A DNA stretch of 64,000 bases, taken from the NCBI GenBank assembly GCA_964541305.1, contig CAZIPE010000001.1:82350-146349 (forward strand), read 5' to 3'. The notes under the pieces were generated by a model that was not told the DNA's origin, made no database searches, and saw only the letters and a list, made by a program, of their open reading frames with translations. The translations under genes and the position numbers were made by a program. Below are positions 4,458-18,992 of this stretch, piece by piece (positions within the stretch are counted from its first letter, which is position 1; each line of letters opens with the position of its first letter). This DNA comes from an uncultured Candidatus Saccharibacteria bacterium. GTDB taxonomy: Bacteria; Patescibacteriota; Saccharimonadia; Saccharimonadales; UBA7683.

Positions 4458-5081
4458 TTATGCCCCTACCACCACAACACTACCTTTTTTGGGACCGGGT
4501 ACTGCACCGGTAACCCCAAGTAGGTTCTTTGCTTCATCAATAAAAGCTACTTGAAGGCCGGATACTGTCACACGTTCGTGACCCATATGACCCGCCATAC
4601 GCTTACCTTTGAAGACTTTCTGTGGATACATCGAACCGATTGAACCAGGACGACGTACCATTCCATTACCACCATGAGTACTCGCACTGGTAGCAAAGTT
4701 ATGTCGCTTTACAGTACCCGCGAAACCCTTTCCTTTGCTGGTGCCAGTGACTTTTACCATGTCTCCAATGCTAAATTCTGAAACAGAAAAAGAGGAGCCT
4801 ACTTTCATTTGCTCCTCATCTTCAACTTTTACGTTACGGAATTCGCGAATCATTCGTGGTGCGAGTGCCTTATCTGCTTTTGCAACGTGCCCAGCCACCG
4901 GTTTGCTCGTATTCTTACCACCACCAACTGCCACTTGAACGGCATCATAACCATCAGTTTCAGTTGTTTTAATTTGAGTTATTACACAAGGACCTGCTTG
5001 CAGGATTGTTACGGGCGTAAGTGTTCCATCCTCAGCGAGGATCTGTGTCATACCTAATTTTGTGCCCAATAGTGCCTTCAT
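4458..5081 (-). CDS. rplC: 50S ribosomal protein L3
   Basis: [14 protein letters not shown]... and KGKGFAG are typical of L3. Start moved to ATG 5081, which has AAGGA a few nt upstream. The track start at 5108 remains possible. Confidence 0.95.
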
Positions 5082-5199
5082 ATAATCCTTGTTTTTACCT
5101 TTTAGCATATAAAAATCTTGGGCTACCTGTGGTTTCTTATATTTTTTGTATAGACCTTCAGATGTGCCAAGTGCTAAAGAAGCATAAAGTTACCAAGTA

Positions 5200-5232: not shown

Positions 5233-5502
5233 TTAAATTGTAATGCCAACAGGGAGATAGAAGCTGATGAATGTGGCAGCCAGAAGTACTGCATACTCAA
5301 TTTTGCGATCTATCTGAAAATGTTCATGAGAAGCAAAGATTAAGCCGAGGATTAAACCCACCGGTATACTTAGGTGTTCGAACGGTCCAAACGAAACGTT
5401 TAATAGACGTATCCAAAACGTACCGAGGAGAAAATAGAGCACTAGTTTTAAAAAGTAGGCCGAATCACTCTCTCTCGAAGACTTCTTTTTTCTTTTTGCC
5501 AT
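5233..5502 (-). CDS. hypothetical small membrane protein
   Basis: 89-aa ORF with a Lys-rich N-terminus followed by hydrophobic helices. It fills the gap between rpsJ and rplC. I recognise no family. Confidence 0.5.
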   Translation of the reverse strand: MAKRKKKSSRESDSAYFLKLVLYFLLGTFWIRLLNVSFGPFEHLSIPVGLILGLIFASHEHFQIDRKIEYAVLLAATFISFYLPVGITI

Positions 5503-5569: not shown

Positions 5570-5893
5570 CTAGTTCATTTTGATTTCAGCATCACAACCA
5601 GCTGGAAGACTGAGGTTCATGAGTGAATCAACTGTTTTTGGTGTAGGGTCAAGAATGTCTATAAGGCGCTTGTGCACGCGCATCTCAAACTGTTCCATGC
5701 CTTTTTTGTAGACATGTGGGCTCTTAATAACCGTGAACTTACTCTTTCGGGTTGGAAGAGGAATCGGACCGTTGATCGTTGCTCCGGTTCGAAGAGCCGT
5801 ATCAATAATTTGTTTGGCAGACTGGTCGATAATTTTATGATCGTATGCTTTAAGACGAATACGAATCTTTTGCTTTGGTGCTACTTCTGACAT
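5570..5893 (-). CDS. rpsJ: 30S ribosomal protein S10
   Basis: [26 protein letters not shown]... is canonical S10. Start moved to ATG 5893 (AAAGGA upstream), because the first 18 aa of the track ORF are not S10-like. Confidence 0.95.
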
Positions 5894-6014
5894 GGAATGT
5901 CCTTTCGTTGTTGTAATGTAACATCCCAAGGAGGTTATAGAGAACACACCTTGTGACTTTTAGTCATTACGATTAATGATGTAATCAAATTGTACAACAG
6001 GTAGCGAATTTTGT

Positions 6015-6413
6015 CTAGTGAGGTAAATTAACGCCCGCTTCTTTAGCGGTGATTATTGTATTTTTATAGGTAAGAAGTATTTTCTTTTCTAGGCTCAGTT
6101 TATGAAACTCTTGCTCGTCCTTGTCTGCACTCTTAGGCTGTGAAAGCATTGCATAAATTTCCTTGATATCGTTCTCTAGTGCCTCAACGCGTCCATCTAG
6201 TGAGTCGAATTTTTGATTTAGAAGTCTAACTTCACTCTTAAGATATGAAACATCATGCTTCAACGTTGAAATATCGGCTCTTATTTTAACTATGTCCTTT
6301 TTAATCCCTGCAATTTCGTGACGTAACTCGTCAAATTGTGGTCCAGTTACTGCCTCGACACCTTCAATAACAATCGTGCGAATTTGGTCAAGATCATTTT
6401 GCGTCAAGCTCAT
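6015..6413 (-). CDS. hypothetical coiled-coil protein
   Basis: About 132 aa, heptad-rich (IAGIKKDIVKIRADISTLKHDVSYLKSEVRLLNQKFDSLDGRVEALENDIKEI). Start set to the second ATG (6413), which lies 6 nt after a TGaTAAAAT extended -10. The track start is 6419. Confidence 0.6.
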   Translation of the reverse strand: MSLTQNDLDQIRTIVIEGVEAVTGPQFDELRHEIAGIKKDIVKIRADISTLKHDVSYLKSEVRLLNQKFDSLDGRVEALENDIKEIYAMLSQPKSADKDEQEFHKLSLEKKILLTYKNTIITAKEAGVNLPH

Positions 6414-6437
6414 AAGCATATTTTATCATAAATATTC

Positions 6438-6485: not shown

Positions 6486-7667
6486 TTATTTAGTGATCTT
6501 AGTAACCACACCAGCACCTACGGTTCGGCCACCTTCGCGGATTGCGAATCGAAGACCATCATCCATAGCGATTGGAGCGAGCAGTTTTACCTTGAAAGTG
6601 ATAGTATCACCAGGCATAACCATCTCTTTATCGGCTGGAAGTTCAACTTCACCAGTTACATCAGTAGTACGGAAGTAAAACTGTGGTTTGTAACCCTTAA
6701 AGAATGGAGTGTGACGTCCACCTTCTTCTTTGGTAAGAATGTATACTTCAGCATCAAATTCTGTGTGCGGAGTAATCGTACCTGGCTTTGCAAGCACCTG
6801 GCCGCGTTCAATATCTTCTCGTTCAATACCGCGAAGCAAGATACCTGCGTTATCACCAGCTTGACCTTGGTCAAGAGACTTCTTGAAAGCTTCGATACCT
6901 GTTACCACGCTCTTTCGAGTTTCACGGATACCAACGATTTCAACTTCGTCGTTTACTTTTACGATACCAGTTTCAACACGTCCGGTCGCAACTGTTCCAC
7001 GACCCTTGATTGAAAATACATCTTCAATAGGCATAAGGAATGACTTATCAAGATCACGTGTTGGTTCAGGAATGTAATCATCCATAGCCTTAACGAGTTC
7101 CATAACAGCGTCTTCGTCAGATGCAGATCCTTCAAGGGCCTTAGTAGCAGAACCCTTGATGATAGGACAATCTCGGTCGAATTCGTACTTCGCAAGAAGG
7201 TCACGAACATCTTCTTCAATAAGTTCTACGAGTTCAGCATCAGCAAGGTCCATCTTGTTGAGGAAAACAACAATCTTAGGTACGCCCACTTGCTTAGCAA
7301 GAAGAACGTGCTCTCGAGTTTGTGGCATAGGACCATCAGCTGCAGATACTACAAGAACAGCACCATCAATTTGTGCGGCACCAGTAATCATGTTCTTAAC
7401 GTAGTCGGCGTGACCTGGCATATCAACGTGAGCGTAGTGACGCTTTTCGCTTTCATACTCTTGGTGAGAAGTAGCAATGGTTATACCACGTGCTTTTTCT
7501 TCCGGTGCGTTATCGATTTGTGCGTAGTCGACTTTCTTGTTAACGTCGCTTGGTAGCTTCTTTGCTAATACGGTTGTAATAGCCGCTGTTAGTGTTGTCT
7601 TACCATGATCAACGTGACCCATAGTACCAACATTGACATGAGGTTTTGTTCGATCAAAATCTGCCAT
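6486..7667 (-). CDS. tuf: elongation factor Tu
   Basis: 393 aa, [18 protein letters not shown] and NKMD motifs. Full-length EF-Tu. Confidence 0.99.
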
Positions 7668-7761
7668 TATTTCTCCTTGTTATTACTTTCGTTAATTTTG
7701 TCACGCGGTCCTTATTGCTTGAGATAGCACTCAAACAACGCCCTCACGCGAGATACTCAAT

Positions 7762-7790
7762 TATTGTAATTCATTACCATGCTATTGTAA
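7762..7790 (-). promoter_or_regulatory. sigma70-type promoter upstream of tuf
   Basis: Minus strand reads TTTACA (7785-7790), 17 nt, TACAAT (7762-7767). The leader is roughly 95 nt and ends in AAGGAG before the tuf ATG. Confidence 0.5.
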
Positions 7791-7845
7791 AGATGAGTAT
7801 TGCTTTTAAAAACACTGTGGTTTACCTCTTCCCAGCAAATATGTT

Positions 7846-8253
7846 CTATCTGAGCTTATGCAGGGCTTTTACCGCACCCAATTGCTCTGCACCGGTTGCT
7901 TGAGCGCGCGCCACATGGTCAAACGGCGAATTATCTGCCCTGTCTTCGCCTATGCGGAATGGCGACTCCCGAATATCACCACTAGCAGTTACATTTCCGA
8001 GTATAAAACTCCGGGCCCGGCATGACATCAGTCTCCTGCCATCACATGTGACAGCTTCGACATAAGGGTTTGATGTGAGGTTGCGTGCATTCGAAATATC
8101 GTTCAGCTCCATCGCCTCATAGATTTCTTGCTTCACACGTCTGCAACTTGCGTAGCATTTTGGTTGAATAAATACTTGTACTTCGGTAGTCGGAAATACA
8201 TCCGGAGCCGATAATTGTTCTATTTTCGGAATTGTATGTATCATCTCAGCCAT
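7846..8253 (-). CDS. hypothetical protein (four Cys in two pairs)
   Basis: 135-aa ORF with a GAGGA Shine-Dalgarno sequence 6 nt upstream. Contains CYASC and CDGRRLMSC. It fills the fusA-tuf spacer. I recognise no family. Confidence 0.6.
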   Translation of the reverse strand: MAEMIHTIPKIEQLSAPDVFPTTEVQVFIQPKCYASCRRVKQEIYEAMELNDISNARNLTSNPYVEAVTCDGRRLMSCRARSFILGNVTASGDIRESPFRIGEDRADNSPFDHVARAQATGAEQLGAVKALHKLR

Positions 8254-8325
8254 AAGTGGTCCTCGCTCAATTTAGTTATCAGTACTATTATTCATTGCGT
8301 TAGCAACGAATGTCAAATTTAGTAC

Positions 8326-10407
8326 TTATTTACTGCGATTAGCGATAACTGCTTCAGCAACATTTGGTGGAACTTCCGCGTAGTGTGCGAGTTCCATCGT
8401 AGAGCTTGCGCGGCCCTGTGTCATCGAACGAATATCAGTGGTGTAACCAAACATTTCAGCGAGTGGAACAAAGGCATCAATAACCTTAGCGTTAGAACGA
8501 TCCTCCATGCTCTCAACGCGTCCACGTCGTGAATTGAGGTCTCCAATAACATCACCCATGAATTCCTCAGGAACAACAACTTCAACTTTCATTACAGGCT
8601 CAAGGAGAACACCACCGCCTTTTTTCACGCCTTCTTGAAGAGCCATGCTTCCGGCAATCTTAAAGGCCATTTCAGATGAGTCAACATCGTGATAACTACC
8701 ATCGTAAAGCTCAGCTGAAACGTCTACTACGGGGTAGCCAGCAATAACACCGTTGCCCATCGCTTCTTCAACACCTTGCTGAACAGGTTTGATGTATTCA
8801 CTTGGAACAGCACCACCCTTAATAGAGTTGATGAACTCGAAGCCCTTACCTGGTTCTTGAGGCTTAAGGCGAAGCCATACGTCACCGTACTGACCACGAC
8901 CACCAGATTGACGGATAAACTTACCCTGAATTTCAACTTCTTTTTTAATCGTTTCACGATAAGCAACTTGAGGTTGTCCAATGTTAGCTTCAACACTGAA
9001 TTCTCGCTTCATTCGATCAACAAGGATCTCGAGGTGAAGCTCACCCATTCCCGAGATAATAGTCTGACCAGTTTCCTCGTCTGTGTGAACGCGGAAGGTA
9101 GGATCTTCTTCGGCAAGACGCTGAAGGGCAATACCCATTTTTTCTTGGTCTGCTTTGGTCTTAGGTTCAATAGCAATTGAAACCGGAGGATCGGGGAAGG
9201 TAATGCTCTCAAGAATAATCGGATTAGTTGGATCACAAAGGGTGTTTCCGGTAGTCGTAGCTTTCATGCCAACAATGGCTGCAATATCCCCTGCTTCTAC
9301 CTCTTCTACGTCTTCTCGCTTATCGGCGTGCATACGGACCAAACGGCCAACACGGGTTTTTTCACCAGTAGAGCTGTTTAGAATATAACTACCAGCGGTA
9401 ATCTTTCCCGAATAGACACGGAAGAAACAGAGTTTGCCCATGAATGGATCGGTAGCGATTTTAAAGGCCAGACCAGAAAATGGTTCGGCGTTATCTGATT
9501 TTCGCTCAATTTCATCACCCGTCTTAGGGTGTGTTCCCCATACAGATCCACGGTCAAGCGGGCTAGGAAGGAATTGAATAACAAGGTCAAGTACCTTCTC
9601 AACAATAACCCCACGGCCATCTCCACCGGTAACAATGAAGAATTCACCAGTCAATACCGCTTTTCGAATAGCGGAACAGAGTTCTTCTTCAGTAATAGAC
9701 TCTTCACCGCTCTCAAAGTACTTATCAAGGAGTTCGTCGTCGTAACTCACCGCTGATTCAACGAGTAGGCTGCGAGCATTCTTGGCCTTTTCAACCATGT
9801 CTTCAGGAATTTCACCTTCAACGAGTGCCTTATCGGTAAAGTCTTTGTAGGTGTAGGCTTTCATAGTGATAAGATCAACGACGCCATTAATAGTCTGCTC
9901 AAAACCAATTGGGAGATGAACAGGCACTGCATGCTTTGTTAAGCGTTGGTGAATAGTTTCGAGAGATTTGTAGAAATCCCCGCCTGTTTGGTTAATCTTG
10001 TTAATAAAGCAGACACGAGGTACGCCGTACTTATCGGCTTGTCGCCATACAGTTTCAGATTGTGATTCAACACCCATCTTACCGTCAAAGACCGTAACAG
10101 CCCCATCAAGCACACGAAGTGATCGCTCAACTTCAGCCGTAAAGTCAATATGACCTGGTGTATCGATAATATTGATCTGGTGATCTTTCCAGAAACAGGT
10201 AACAGCAGCAGAGGTAATAGTAATACCACGCTCACGTTCTTGCTCCATCCAGTCAGTAGTGGTTTCACCTTCGTGAACCGCACCAATCTTGTGAGAGATA
10301 CCCGTACGGTATAGCACGCCCTCTGTTGTGGTGGTCTTACCCGCATCAATATGGGCAATAATCCCAATGTTACGCAGTTTTACTAAATCTATCTTCTTTG
10401 TTGCCAT
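8326..10407 (-). CDS. fusA: elongation factor G
   Basis: 693 aa, [20 protein letters not shown] and NKINQ motifs. Full-length EF-G. Confidence 0.99.
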
Positions 10408-10410
10408 ATA

Positions 10411-10428
10411 TTATCCTTTTTATCCTTT
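10411..10428 (-). repeat. tandem 9-mer AAAGGATAA x2 at the ORF120/fusA junction
   Basis: Minus strand reads ...gatagaaaa AAAGGATAA AAAGGATAA tatATG(fusA). The upstream copy carries the ORF120 stop, and the downstream copy is the fusA SD followed by TAA. Confidence 0.9.
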
Positions 10429-10782
10429 TTTTCTATCAAAAAATGCATGGGCATCGAGCAGCGTACTGTTAGTGTCTATCGAAACTCTTGAAACTATAAA
10501 GCTTGCCATAGTGCCACAAAGACTGCCATCACAATTTGAGTCATCTTGACCTTCGCTGGCTGCAATCACCTCATTACTGAAATTGGCAAGATGATCCTGA
10601 ATATAGCCGAGTTTGGGGGCAAGGAAAACTCTAAACATGGCATTCAAAGTTCGATTTTCATGTAATGTACTCAAATCTACAGTTGCACTCATTTCACCGG
10701 CAGCCTCACTTAGTTCGTTCAGGAATACTCGTGATTCGCACACCTCTCCACTAGCTGGACATCTTGTGTCTAGTAATGGCAT
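10420..10782 (-). CDS. hypothetical protein (four Cys in two pairs)
   Basis: The 120-aa ORF exactly fills the rpsG-fusA spacer. Its ATG is 1 nt after the rpsG TAA and its stop is 12 nt before the fusA ATG. Contains CPASGEVC and CDGSLC. No SD of its own, so reinitiation coupling is plausible. Confidence 0.55.
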   Translation of the reverse strand: MPLLDTRCPASGEVCESRVFLNELSEAAGEMSATVDLSTLHENRTLNAMFRVFLAPKLGYIQDHLANFSNEVIAASEGQDDSNCDGSLCGTMASFIVSRVSIDTNSTLLDAHAFFDRKKG

Positions 10783-10783
10783 A

Positions 10784-11263
10784 TTAAAATCTCGCGAAGT
10801 GGGCGAAAGCTCGGTTGGCTTCAGCCATTTTATGAGTATCTTCTTTTTTCTTCACAGCTGCGCCAGCATTATTATGAGCATCTACAATCTCTGCAGCCAG
10901 TCGCTTGTTATACGGCATGCCTTTTCGAGCGCGTGCCGCTTGAACAAACCACATCATACCAAGGTGTCCCTTACGGTGTCCTTCAACAGGAAATGGAATC
11001 TGGTAGTTTGCGCCACCAACTCGTCGGCTTTTTACTTCAACGTTAGGCAGGATATTGTTAACTGCTTCTTCAAGAGCTTGAAGTGGATCTTCAATCTTAA
11101 GTTTCTTAGCAGCTTGTTCCATAGCCTCATATACGGCAGTTTCTGCAGATACTTTTTTACCATCGAGCATACTTTTGTTAATCAGGCGCTGTACAAGTAC
11201 CGAGTTATACTTACGGTCTGGAGCTACTGGACGAATGAGCGATTTGGTCTTTTTTCTCGGCAT
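10784..11263 (-). CDS. rpsG: 30S ribosomal protein S7
   Basis: 159 aa, [21 protein letters not shown]..., canonical S7. The start overlaps the rpsL stop (TAATG). Confidence 0.98.
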   Translation of the reverse strand: MPRKKTKSLIRPVAPDRKYNSVLVQRLINKSMLDGKKVSAETAVYEAMEQAAKKLKIEDPLQALEEAVNNILPNVEVKSRRVGGANYQIPFPVEGHRKGHLGMMWFVQAARARKGMPYNKRLAAEIVDAHNNAGAAVKKKEDTHKMAEANRAFAHFARF

Positions 11264-11676
11264 TATTTACTCGCTTTCTTTGTTCCGTACTTAGAACGGC
11301 CCTGTTTTCTATCAGCAACACCTTGAAGGTCAAGATTACCGCGAACAATATGGTAACGAACACCGGGAAGATCGGGAACACGACCGCCACGAACAAGCAC
11401 TACTGCGTGCTCTTGAAGGTTGTGCCCTTCTCCACCGATATAAGCCCAAACTTCATGACCGTTTGTTAGTCGCACACGGGCAACCTTACGAAGGGCAGAG
11501 TTAGGTTTACGCGGAGTTTTAGTCGTTACCTTGATACAGACGCCTCGTTTGAACGGTGCCGGTTTTTCGTAACTGGTGTTCTTTTGAGAATTGGTAATCT
11601 TACGAAGAGCCGCAGTTTTCACCTTACGAGCTGTCGTCTTTCGTGGTTTACGAACCAATTGATTAATTGTTGGCAT
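11263..11676 (-). CDS. rpsL: 30S ribosomal protein S12
   Basis: [13 protein letters not shown]... is canonical S12. Start moved to ATG 11676, because the four track-extra codons are themselves the GGAGG SD. Confidence 0.98.
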
Positions 11677-11739
11677 CAATGCCTCCAACTATTTTTACAG
11701 TTGCATCTTGCATAAGAACTGATTTTAACAGATGTGAGC

Positions 11740-14700
11740 TCATAGTGCAACCTCTGACCCTTCTTTCATAGCGGGCGCACCGGTTCCAACAGGAATCTTG
11801 CGACCAATGATGACGTTCTCTTTAAGGCCGTAAAGGTGATCGACTTTACCACTTGTTGCGGCATTAATAAGTACGCGAGTCGTGTCTTGGAATGAGGCAG
11901 CAGATAGGAAGCTATCGCTCCAAGTAGAAACCTTGGCAATACCGAGTAGCAACTGTGTGAATTCAGCAGGTGCTTTGTTGTCCTCAGCAAGCTTAGCGTT
12001 GCCTTCAACGACTGAAGCCTTGCTGACAATATCACCGGTTACGAAGAGGCTATCTCCACTGTCTTCAATCTGAACTCGACTGAACATTTGTCTCACGATA
12101 ATCTCAAGATGTTGGTCAGCGAGCGTTACACCCTGCTGCGCAAACATACTCTGGATTTCGTTAATAATGTAGCGCTGCGTTTCTTCAATACCCTTGAGGC
12201 GCATCAAATCATGCAAGTTGAGTGAACCAGTTGTTAGTCGGTCACCAGCTTTGACGCTTTCACCTTCTGCAACTGTTAAGCTCTTGAAGCCCGGAATCTC
12301 ATATTTAACTGGAGTACTATGATGGGCCGTAAGAACCGCTTTACCATCGTGGAATTCAACCGTAGCTGAGAATGCTGCGACAAGTGGTCGTTCACCCTTA
12401 GCATCTGATGCAATGACGTCTCCGGCTAGTACTTCGTTACCATTTTTCAGCTGTGGCTTACGTTTTTCAAGAGCGAACTCCTCAATGCGAGCTTCAGATG
12501 GGGTAACTTGTACGACGTAGTGATTACCTTCTTCCCAGATGCTGACGTTACCATCGAGTTCAGACATTTGAGCCTGACTCTTAGGCGTACGAGCCTCAAG
12601 AAGCTCCTCAACACGAGGCAGACCCTGGGTCACATCTTCTACGCTTGCGGCACCAGCGGTGTGCTTGGTACGCATAGTAAGCTGAGTTCCTGGTTCACCA
12701 ATCGACTGAGCCGCAATAACACCAACCGGCTGATAAGCTTTGACTATATAGCCAGTAGCCTTGTCGAGACCGTAACTCTTCGGGCTAATGCCTCGGAGGT
12801 TTGCCGCACTCAAGACGCTTCGGATCAAGATTGAGTCGTGCTCACTGGCGTCAATAAGGGCACCAGCTTCTTCAGTAATCAGTTCGCCTGATTTAACAAC
12901 CGTTTTGCCGTCAACCTTAATAGTTTCAGCCGCATAACGTCCACTGACACGCTCACCAAAGTTCATGCCGATACCTTCGGTCTCAGGTCGCAAGACCTTG
13001 AAGCCTGGATCTTCACAATCATCATCTACAGTGAACATATCTTGAGCAACATCCACCATTCGACGAGTTAAGTAACCGGAGTCAGCCGTACGTAGGGCGG
13101 TATCAATCAGACCCTTACGTGAACCACGTGTATCAACGAAGTATTCAATCGGGGTAAGACCCTTCTTATAGTTGTTTCGAATAGGAAGTTCAACCTCACG
13201 GCCAAGCGCATCCACCACAAGACCCTTCATACCAGATACCTGCTTGATCTGTGAGGTGCTACCGCGAGCACCAGAGATCATAGCAATACCAATACTGGTA
13301 TCTTCGCCTTCGTATGCACTCACAAGTATGGCCTGGACTTGTTCATCAACTTCGCGCCACACGCCAACGGTGAGTCGGTAGCGTTCTTCTTCGCTGATTA
13401 AACCTTGTTCATACTGGTCAGATACATCTGAAGCTTTCTTTTCACCCGCTTCAAGTAGCGCATCAAGGCCTGGGAGATCGATATAGTCGTCCATACCCGT
13501 TGATATACCAGCAAATGTCGCGTAACTAAAGCCAAGTCGCATAAGGTTATCGGCAATTTCAGCTGCTACTTCAGAACCGTAGTTTCTAAATACTCGGCCC
13601 ATAACAGCTACTAACTTCTTCTTAGTCATAACATCATTTACGTAGGCAAAATCTTCAGGAAGAATACTGTTGAACAGTAATCGACCGAGGGTGGTCTGGA
13701 TACTGTTACCTCTGAAAGTCGTACGGATCGGTGTTTGAAGTTTGATCTTATCAGCTTCAAGTGCCATAAGTGCTTCGTCAATTGAGCTAACCGGAACTGG
13801 TGTTTTTACCATTGCATCAGGTTTGTCATAGGTTAGGTAGTAACAACCAAGGACAATATCTTGTTCAATGTGTAGAATTGGTGCACCATCAGCAGGCTTA
13901 AGCAAGTTTTTGCTCGCTTGCATCAGTTCCTTCGCTTCTTTCTGAGCAGAGTCAGAAAGTGGAAGATGCACCGCCATTTGGTCACCATCGAAGTCAGCGT
14001 TAAAGCCTTTACATACGAGAGGGTGCAATTGAATAGCTTTACCTTCAATCAGTTTCGGCTGGAAAGCCAAAATTGAAAGTCGGTGAAGGGTTGGTGCACG
14101 GTTAAGTAGTACGTACTTCTCTTTAATCACTTCGTCGAGGGCATCCCAGATAACTGTTTCACCTGCTTCAATCAAACGAGTTGCGTTCTTAATATTGTGA
14201 GCGTACTCATGTTGCATGAGCCAACCAATAACAAATGGTTTAAACAACTCAAGTGCCATAAGTTTTGGCAACCCACACTGATTAATCTTTAGTTCAGGAC
14301 CAGATACGATAACTGAACGACCAGAGTAATCTACGCGCTTACCAAGGAGGTTCTGACGGAATCGTCCGTGCTTACCCTTGAGCATATCGCTCAGAGATTT
14401 AAGACGTCGTCGTCCGCCCGTTGCGCTTACTGCGCGCCCTGAGCGTGCCGCTGAGTTGTCTATAAGAGCATCAACCGCTTCTTGCAACATTCGTTGCTCG
14501 TTGCGACGAATAACACCTGGGGCATTAAGGTCAATCAGCTTCTTCAATCGATTGTTACGGTTAATAACGCGGCGATAGAGGTCGTTCATGTCTGAAGTTG
14601 CAAAACGTCCACCAGTTAGCTGAACCATTGGTCGTAGGTCTGGAGGTATAACCGGAAGTACACTGACACACATGCTACCTGGCTCAATACCAGCTTGCAA

Positions 14701-15548: not shown

Positions 15549-15549
<1 letters not shown>
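11740..15549 (-). CDS. rpoC: DNA-directed RNA polymerase subunit beta'
   Basis: 1269 aa with the NADFDGDQM catalytic motif. The start overlaps the rpoB stop (TAATG). An alternative start at Met10 (MTDFDAVK) is possible. Confidence 0.99.

Positions 15550-18992
<3,443 letters not shown>

Follow-up and report, generated by a model that had tools for sequence, protein, structure and literature searches.

The window analysed here, a 64,000-nucleotide (nt) stretch of contig CAZIPE010000001.1 (assembly GCA_964541305.1, positions 82,350 to 146,349), is placed within the Saccharibacteria/Saccharimonadales by its ribosomal protein S7 and elongation factor EF-G, and carries on its minus strand a str operon in which a 120-amino-acid (aa) open reading frame (ORF), termed here ORF X, lies between rpsG (S7) and fusA (EF-G). 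Few gene arrangements in bacteria are as conserved as that of the str operon, in which additional cistrons are rare. The initial annotation of this DNA described an ORF that fills the rpsG–fusA junction, where the spacer is normally short, and that bears the cysteine pairs C-x6-C and C-x4-C, all of which is borne out: ORF X begins one nucleotide past the rpsG stop codon, ends 12 nt before fusA and has Cys at residues 8, 15, 84 and 89, and the corresponding spacer measures roughly 10–170 nt in the non-Saccharibacteria loci recovered with an S7 query.

Read along the minus strand, the upstream junction is ...TTT TAA T ATG CCA..., such that a single T (10783) separates the rpsG TAA from the ATG of ORF X (10782–10780), and the TAA of ORF X (10422–10420) is followed, after the 12-nt gap AAAGGATAATAT, by the fusA ATG (10407–10405). 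The stop codon of rpsL overlaps the start codon of rpsG, so that the genes of this operon are in general tightly coupled. Within the 25 nt preceding ORF X (cgcGAGAttttaatATG), a weak GAGA is the sole element resembling a Shine–Dalgarno (SD) sequence. Across positions 7600–11800, an Rfam scan returned only sub-threshold chance matches, and terminator-like hairpins occur at the frequency expected by chance.

Judged from its sequence properties, ORF X is almost certainly a genuine protein-coding gene. When the 376-nt spacer was shuffled 20,000 times, an ORF of 363 nt or more appeared once (P = 5e-5); calculated analytically, a run of 120 open codons has a probability of 2.6e-4. A codon log-odds score, for which 34 long genes of the window served as the training set, gives ORF X +0.28 per codon in its own frame and negative values in all five others, compared with 0.46 ± 0.14 for 120-codon windows of real genes and at most 0.01 for 23 spurious overlapping ORFs; this places ORF X at the 8th percentile of real genes, the lowest among the clearly real ones. 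The GC content by codon position is 0.52/0.43/0.33 for ORF X versus 0.57/0.39/0.38 for real genes. Two Logan contigs (L168 and L169) are 100% identical to the window at the DNA level, and a sister strain (Logan contigs L001 and L002) is 97.6% identical and differs within ORF X by two synonymous and no non-synonymous changes, one of them (TGC/TGT) in the codon of Cys15. Shuffling, codon usage and the sister strain thus agree with the initial annotation in pointing to a real, previously unknown gene tightly packed with rpsG and fusA. The coding signature comprises, besides the frame-specific codon usage and the exclusively synonymous changes, a ratio of non-synonymous to synonymous substitution rates (dN/dS) of 0.144 in the homologous pair from the related loci L054 and L083.

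No credible match to ORF X, to its alignment or to the neighbouring orphan ORFs was obtained from Pfam, NCBIfam, PHROGs, PADLOC or the PDB sequences. Pfam gave a single, spurious match to ORF X (12.7 bits) and NCBIfam none, PHROGs a single non-significant match (E = 0.053) and PADLOC none, and the best E-value in a profile search of the PDB was 0.72. Scanning of GTDB genomes and JGI metagenomes with ORF X returned no match, nor did tblastn of phage and plasmid records at E up to 1, and a word-seeded search of 5.8 billion clustered proteins returned ORF X itself alone. An exhaustive phmmer search of 1.84 billion representatives yielded, beyond ORF X itself, only P0002, a 3,875-aa Ig-repeat adhesin, which was rejected as a match inflated by repeats and composition (eight stretches at 24% identity). 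The literature searched holds no description of extra genes in Saccharibacteria str operons or of a set of genes occupying this position.

Table 1. Features of the str operon region, listed along the minus strand; positions count from the first letter of the window.
Feature	Position	Strand	Basis or remark
rpsL (S12)	11263-11688	minus	stop overlaps rpsG ATG (TAATG at 11263)
rpsG (S7, 159 aa)	10784-11263	minus	TIGR01029 at 4.7e-54; stop TAA 10786-10784
TAAtATG junction (rpsG stop, one nucleotide, ORF X start)	10780-10786	minus	sequence; presumed translational coupling site
ORF X (120 aa, gene under study)	10420-10782	minus	ORF list, codon log-odds, shuffle test
N-terminal Cys pair, residues 8-15, CPASGEVC (C-x3-G-x2-C)	10738-10761	minus	invariant in alignments A1 and A2
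Alternative start Met31 of ORF X	10690-10692	minus	GAGG 11-14 nt upstream; used by gene callers
C-terminal Cys pair, residues 84-89, CDGSLC (C-[DE]-x3-C)	10516-10533	minus	invariant in alignments A1 and A2
Gap between ORF X stop and fusA ATG (12 nt)	10408-10419	minus	SD-like AAGGA for fusA
fusA (EF-G, 693 aa)	8326-10407	minus	TIGR00484, E = 0, 1063.9 bits
Orphan ORF between fusA and tuf (135 aa)	7846-8253	minus	C33-x3-C37, C70-x7-C78; codon score +0.14
Coiled-coil ORF between tuf and rpsJ (134 aa)	6015-6419	minus	weak coiled-coil Pfam matches only
Basic ORF (89 aa) between rpsJ (5570-5947) and rplC (4458-5108)	5233-5502	minus	codon score +0.21

The rpsG–fusA junction in related genomes

The loci compared comprise 58 Saccharibacteria from GTDB, 80 from metagenomes (S7 query) and further contigs reached through homologues, and the gap between rpsG and fusA was measured only where both genes are present (about 85 related junctions). 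Fourteen loci have a gap of 110 nt or less, 34 one of 111–500 nt and 36 one exceeding 500 nt, with a maximum of about 3.7 kb. The fraction of the gap covered by its longest same-strand ORF is distributed bimodally in the 111–500 nt class, at either 0.78–1.0 or below 0.5. The filled class contains 20 distinct loci including the window, with a coverage of 0.89–1.0 in all except L043, and the unfilled class contains about seven sequence types; one further locus is interrupted by Ns. We note that one of the loci, L037 (DATMTU010000041.1), is labelled 'Dongiaceae bacterium', yet its S7 is of the Saccharibacteria type and 73% identical to that of the window; it is probably mis-binned.

The gap-filling ORFs, referred to here as slot ORFs, encode soluble proteins of 75–126 aa and are co-oriented with rpsG and fusA. 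Their start lies 1–11 nt past the rpsG stop, or 56 nt past it in L043, and their end between −1 and about 35 nt before fusA, and several of the junctions are a direct TAAATG, TAGATG or TAATG. In most relatives, an AGG(T), GAGG or AGGAG is located within the last S7 codons, 7–12 nt upstream of the slot ORF ATG, and the GCGAGA of the window is a weakened form of this element. The earlier proposal that ORF X has no SD of its own and is translated by termination–reinitiation is weakened: the weak GAGA is all that precedes ORF X, and reinitiation is a deduction that sits less easily with the SD-like elements of the relatives.

The three closest relatives of the window, L088, L089 and L090, in which S7 is 83–86% and EF-G 80–88% identical, all retain a gap-filling ORF (125, 111 and 106 aa, respectively), as does L170, the S7 of which is 86% identical. 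Loss or frame disruption of the ORF in close relatives, named by the initial annotation as what would speak against a gene, is thus not observed in these three. On the JGI contig of L170, fusA is called as two ORFs of 181 and 512 aa (L170:1544–3624), reflecting a frameshift or an assembly error. ORF X had been treated by the initial annotation as a one-off; instead, the comparison reveals a clade-wide pattern that involves several junctions. By its position, orientation and extent, ORF X is this genome's occupant of a positionally conserved slot between rpsG and fusA in a large clade of Saccharimonadales.

The cysteine scaffold and its divergence

ORF X encodes an acidic protein with an isoelectric point (pI) of 4.6, a net charge of −8, four Cys and a grand average of hydropathy (GRAVY) of −0.07. 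Acidity is shared by 18 of the 20 slot ORFs (pI 4.1–5.9), and at least three Cys are present in 15 of them (3.3–5.4% Cys, versus 0.55% in the 53 proteins of the window). At the background of the window, the probability of at least four Cys in 120 aa is 0.005, and only two of its 26 small genes contain four Cys, namely ORF X and the ORF between fusA and tuf. The typical layout consists of an N-terminal C-xn-C (n = 2–6), an interval of 40–70 residues and a C-terminal C-xn-C (n = 4–16), where Pro often follows Cys.

When ORF X is aligned end to end with the slot ORFs of L047, L050 and L054 and with P0005, residues C8, G12, C15, C84 and C89 are invariant, and the remaining invariant columns are the start Met and, in alignment A2 only, one Asn. 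These proteins (ORF X, L047/P0006, L050/P0004, L054/P0003 and P0005), which are all encoded on the same strand between rpsG and fusA, constitute slot family A. The pattern C...G..C.{30,90}C[DE]...C, which was partly defined after ORF X had been seen, matches exactly the five members of family A among the 3,801 unique ORFs of 60 aa or more that six-frame translation of all loci yields; its two halves, taken separately, match 14 and 25 ORFs. A second group, subfamily B (L088, L170 and L133), has nine invariant columns, comprising four Cys, the start Met, Arg, Pro, Gly and Glu. The Cys pairs are the most conserved feature of both family A and subfamily B, which fits the earlier suggestion that they are compatible with a small metal-binding module, and for ORF X such a module is plausible.

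Sequence searches find L050, L054 and L083 to be mutually significant, and the only groups joined by pairwise or profile searches are L050–L054–L083, L088–L170(–L133), L043–L158 and L009–L022. The family A profile does not retrieve the other Cys-bearing slot ORFs, and we therefore claim no sequence homology across all slot ORFs.

The slot ORFs diverge far more rapidly than their neighbours. Those of L054 and L083 are 74% identical, where S7 is 96% and EF-G 93% identical, and those of L050 and L054 are only 26% identical, where S7 is 87% and EF-G 92% identical and synonymous sites are saturated. Given this 26% at an S7 identity of 87%, undetectable similarity at an S7 identity of about 85% is expected under plain fast divergence. 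At the latter distance, the ORF between rpsL and rpsG keeps 55% identity and the coiled-coil ORF between tuf and rpsJ keeps 36%, such that, of these three, the rpsG–fusA slot changes fastest. In a neighbour-joining tree of EF-G, which has no bootstrap support, the window falls together with L088 and L089, a sister clade holds nearly all other wedged ORFs, and the members of family A are scattered over the whole of this assemblage. Within the assemblage, the gene has been lost in three lineages (gaps of 12–37 nt), and it looks degraded in L052. The 345-nt gap of L052 (L052:1041–1385), which lies in the ORF-bearing clade, contains only a 53-aa GTG ORF with C-x8-C and may represent a decaying slot gene or a sequencing frameshift. 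From these comparisons we infer that an ancestral slot gene diverged rapidly and was lost repeatedly, with only the Cys scaffold surviving.

The other major clade, which includes loci labelled Nanosynbacter, has either no slot ORF or large insertions that often start with what is presumably a YajQ-like gene. In ten loci (L011, L015, L017, L019, L020, L023, L058, L115, L156 and L163) the gap spans 0.7–3.2 kb and its first gene is a conserved one of 164 aa (MASFSFDIVSEIDKAEMNNVF...), which we take to be the YajQ-like gene; some of these ten loci are labelled Nanosynbacter and one Minimicrobia, and in L058 the 164-aa gene is split at residue 91.

Other junctions of the str operon

Small ORFs also occupy further junctions of the operon. 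In the sister strain, a 294-nt insertion is located exactly at the rpsL–rpsG overlap, equivalent to window position 11263, and encodes a 96-aa acidic protein with four Cys (ORF at L002:84–374) in the layout rpsL TAATG...TAAgttATG rpsG. Homologues of this protein in the same slot of L056 (38% identity) and L170 (55%) keep all four Cys. Nine of the 15 differences in rpsG fall within its first 40 nt, beside the indel, and point to a recombination tract.

Downstream of fusA, many relatives carry a variable ORF of 69–143 aa that begins 0–21 nt past the fusA stop, in some cases with four Cys. The 135-aa orphan ORF at this position in the window has no match in Pfam, PHROGs or PADLOC and no tblastn match among the related loci collected, and no paralogy between it and ORF X is detectable. 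Just upstream of the 135-aa ORF lies a strong promoter-like site, TTGACA-18-AATAAT (8316–8287). The 134-aa coiled-coil ORF between tuf and rpsJ shares 36% identity (E = 1e-21) with a 110-aa ORF at the equivalent position of L170, and an 89-aa basic ORF follows rpsJ. Taken together, all str-operon junctions of this clade serve as slots for small accessory ORFs. Elsewhere in the window, RpoB (15549–18992, minus strand) has a long acidic tail (...DDQTDDTQDDESPDEVQDEKEVA), and its stop codon overlaps the rpoC start at 15549.

Possible roles of the slot protein and comparison with known systems

We propose, with moderate confidence, that a coupled slot gene, a four-Cys clasp and an accessory role in translation belong together. 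ORF X would be transcribed with the str operon, and ribosomes finishing S7 would translate it by coupling and then pass on to fusA, which keeps an SD of its own. Closed by its two Cys pairs, the largely helical chain would surround a metal ion, most likely in the form of a Zn(Cys)4 clasp. The slot would have been occupied in the ancestor of the clade, with fast divergence and several losses thereafter. As the least certain step, the product may be a dispensable accessory factor, co-produced with S7 and EF-G, and would most probably act on a component of the translation apparatus by modulating, protecting or chaperoning it, rather than as a structural ribosomal protein.

Several observations weigh against this proposal. 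On the contigs identical to the window, gene callers chose Met31 as the start, giving a 90-aa product (P0001), which makes the start codon less than certain; the conserved C8/C15 pair argues for Met1. The four-Cys slot ORFs of the closest relatives have no detectable similarity to ORF X, five of the 20 slot ORFs contain one Cys or none, such that the scaffold is not universal, and the motif owes part of its definition to hindsight. A hidden Markov model (HMM) built without ORF X ranks it second of the 257 ORFs of the window, end to end, but with E = 0.71; phmmer of ORF X against L050 gives E = 0.26, and pairwise searches are non-significant. The link of ORF X to family A thus rests on motif, register and position rather than on alignment statistics. 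Both AlphaFold2 runs place helices at about residues 16–30, 44–77 and 86–118, and the run with a five-sequence alignment adds a hairpin-like short bridge involving residues 7 and 14, but the mean predicted local distance difference test (pLDDT) scores, 49.4 with the alignment and 39.7 for ORF X alone, leave the models unfit for fold comparison and for deciding how close the Cys lie to each other. A partner as conserved as S7 or EF-G is hard to reconcile with fast evolution and repeated loss, and the slot gene may have been replaced by an unrelated cassette instead of diverging rapidly.

Extreme divergence with persistence of the Cys scaffold would also be expected of a cargo or conflict gene, that is, a host-interaction, immunity or anti-phage gene that exploits the strong constitutive expression of the str operon and is driven to change by an arms race. 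Loss in several lineages, the occupation of the same slot in others by kilobase insertions of unrelated genes, and the presence or absence of the rpsL–rpsG ORF between strains that are 97.6% identical, with a divergent tract beside the indel, are in keeping with this. The three adjacent junctions of one translation operon are, however, all occupied, which looks more specific than random cargo; by inspection and hydropathy, ORF X has no obvious signal peptide or membrane segment, no features of mobile elements were seen, and PADLOC and the phage and plasmid collections hold no match, the one in PHROGs being non-significant. We regard cargo as possible but unlikely. The end-to-end filling of the gap with tight junctions on both sides, in about 20 lineages and without sequence conservation, could alternatively reflect selection for a translated spacer that maintains coupling from rpsG to fusA and avoids polarity after an ancient insertion, with the protein itself largely irrelevant, and the codon score of ORF X, the lowest of the clearly real genes, is in line with such a bridge. 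Selection on the protein is nevertheless suggested by the dN/dS of the L054/L083 pair, by Cys and Gly columns that are invariant in two subfamilies, by a six- to ten-fold enrichment in Cys and by consistently acidic products; moreover, fusA of the window has its own SD, and lineages with gaps of 12–50 nt, or with non-coding gaps of 176–345 nt, evidently need no bridge, which makes this explanation decidedly improbable.

The position within the operon and the coupling would suit a novel core protein of the ribosome or an obligatory translation factor, confined to the Saccharibacteria and made 1:1 with S7, the more so as candidate phyla radiation (CPR) ribosomes are known to be unusual. The acidity, rapid evolution and dispensability of the product speak against a structural role in the ribosome, since ORF X and most slot ORFs are acidic rather than basic, the slot proteins reach 26% identity where S7 reaches 87%, and the gene is missing from many Saccharimonadales, including members of the same clade; with no match to any ribosomal family in Pfam or NCBIfam either, we judge such a role very improbable. 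The least credible explanation, to which we attach hardly any weight, is a chance ORF or annotation artefact in a non-coding spacer. The disagreement of gene callers on the start and the lack of homologues outside the slot among the 5.8 billion and 1.84 billion proteins searched would be consistent with an artefact, whereas the shuffle test, the frame-specific codon usage, the synonymous changes in the sister strain and the recurrence of a gap-filling ORF in related genomes are not.

A more specific form of the accessory-factor proposal is that the ORFs at the rpsL–rpsG and rpsG–fusA junctions and downstream of fusA encode co-produced guardian proteins, which would bind and protect, or chaperone, the adjacent S12, S7, EF-G or EF-Tu and diversify in an arms race with host inhibitors. 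Antibiotics from Actinobacteria, the hosts of cultivated Saccharibacteria, classically target these four proteins. We consider the guardian idea a long shot; if true, it would represent a new kind of operon-embedded target-protection system.

In more general terms, a probably metal-clasped slot protein would be made from the same message as S7 and EF-G yet evolve more than ten times faster than both. An action on translation would make it an accessory factor of that process specific to one lineage, within a phylum already noted for unusual ribosomes; otherwise, accessory genes would appear to have colonised, in a minimal genome, the operon with the highest expression. The family lacks annotation and escapes similarity searches, its definition being possible only through position and Cys scaffold, and position-based comparison could reveal more such genes.

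The order of genes in the window is that of the E. coli str operon, rpsL-rpsG-fusA-tufA, in which S7 autoregulates expression and the downstream genes are translated by coupling; TAATG at rpsL/rpsG and TAAtATG at rpsG/ORF X likewise imply coupled translation. In contrast, E. coli has no gene between rpsG and fusA, where the window has an extra cistron, and the intercistronic S7 operator located between rpsL and rpsG in E. coli is absent from the window because the two genes overlap. The nearest counterparts of ORF X are the hypothetical proteins P0003, P0004, P0005 and P0006, two of which are labelled VFX79_03460 and VFX86_01740 in metagenome-assembled genomes at NCBI. They share with ORF X the slot and orientation and a similar length and acidity, as well as a C-x3-G-x2-C near residue 8 and a C-[DE]-x3-C near residues 83–91, although identity is only 15–22% and the HMM similarity is non-significant.

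Among characterised proteins, the zinc-binding 'C+' forms of the ribosomal proteins bL31, bL33, bL36, uS14 and bS18 are small, carry four Cys in two pairs, are encoded in ribosomal-protein operons and are produced alongside the translation machinery. ORF X resembles them in its small size, its two Cys pairs and its location inside a translation operon. The C+ proteins are, however, basic, RNA-binding, distributed across bacteria and recognised by Pfam and NCBIfam, whereas ORF X is acidic, predicted to be helical, hypervariable, often lost and without a family. FusB and FusC, of about 213 aa, bind EF-G and rescue it from fusidic acid, and contain a C-terminal zinc-binding domain with four Cys. 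ORF X is half their size, neither it nor alignment A2 has a match in Pfam or the PDB, and the FusB genes do not lie within the str operon; nonetheless, FusB and FusC provide a precedent for a small four-Cys accessory protein with EF-G as its partner, which would suit a gene located directly upstream of fusA.

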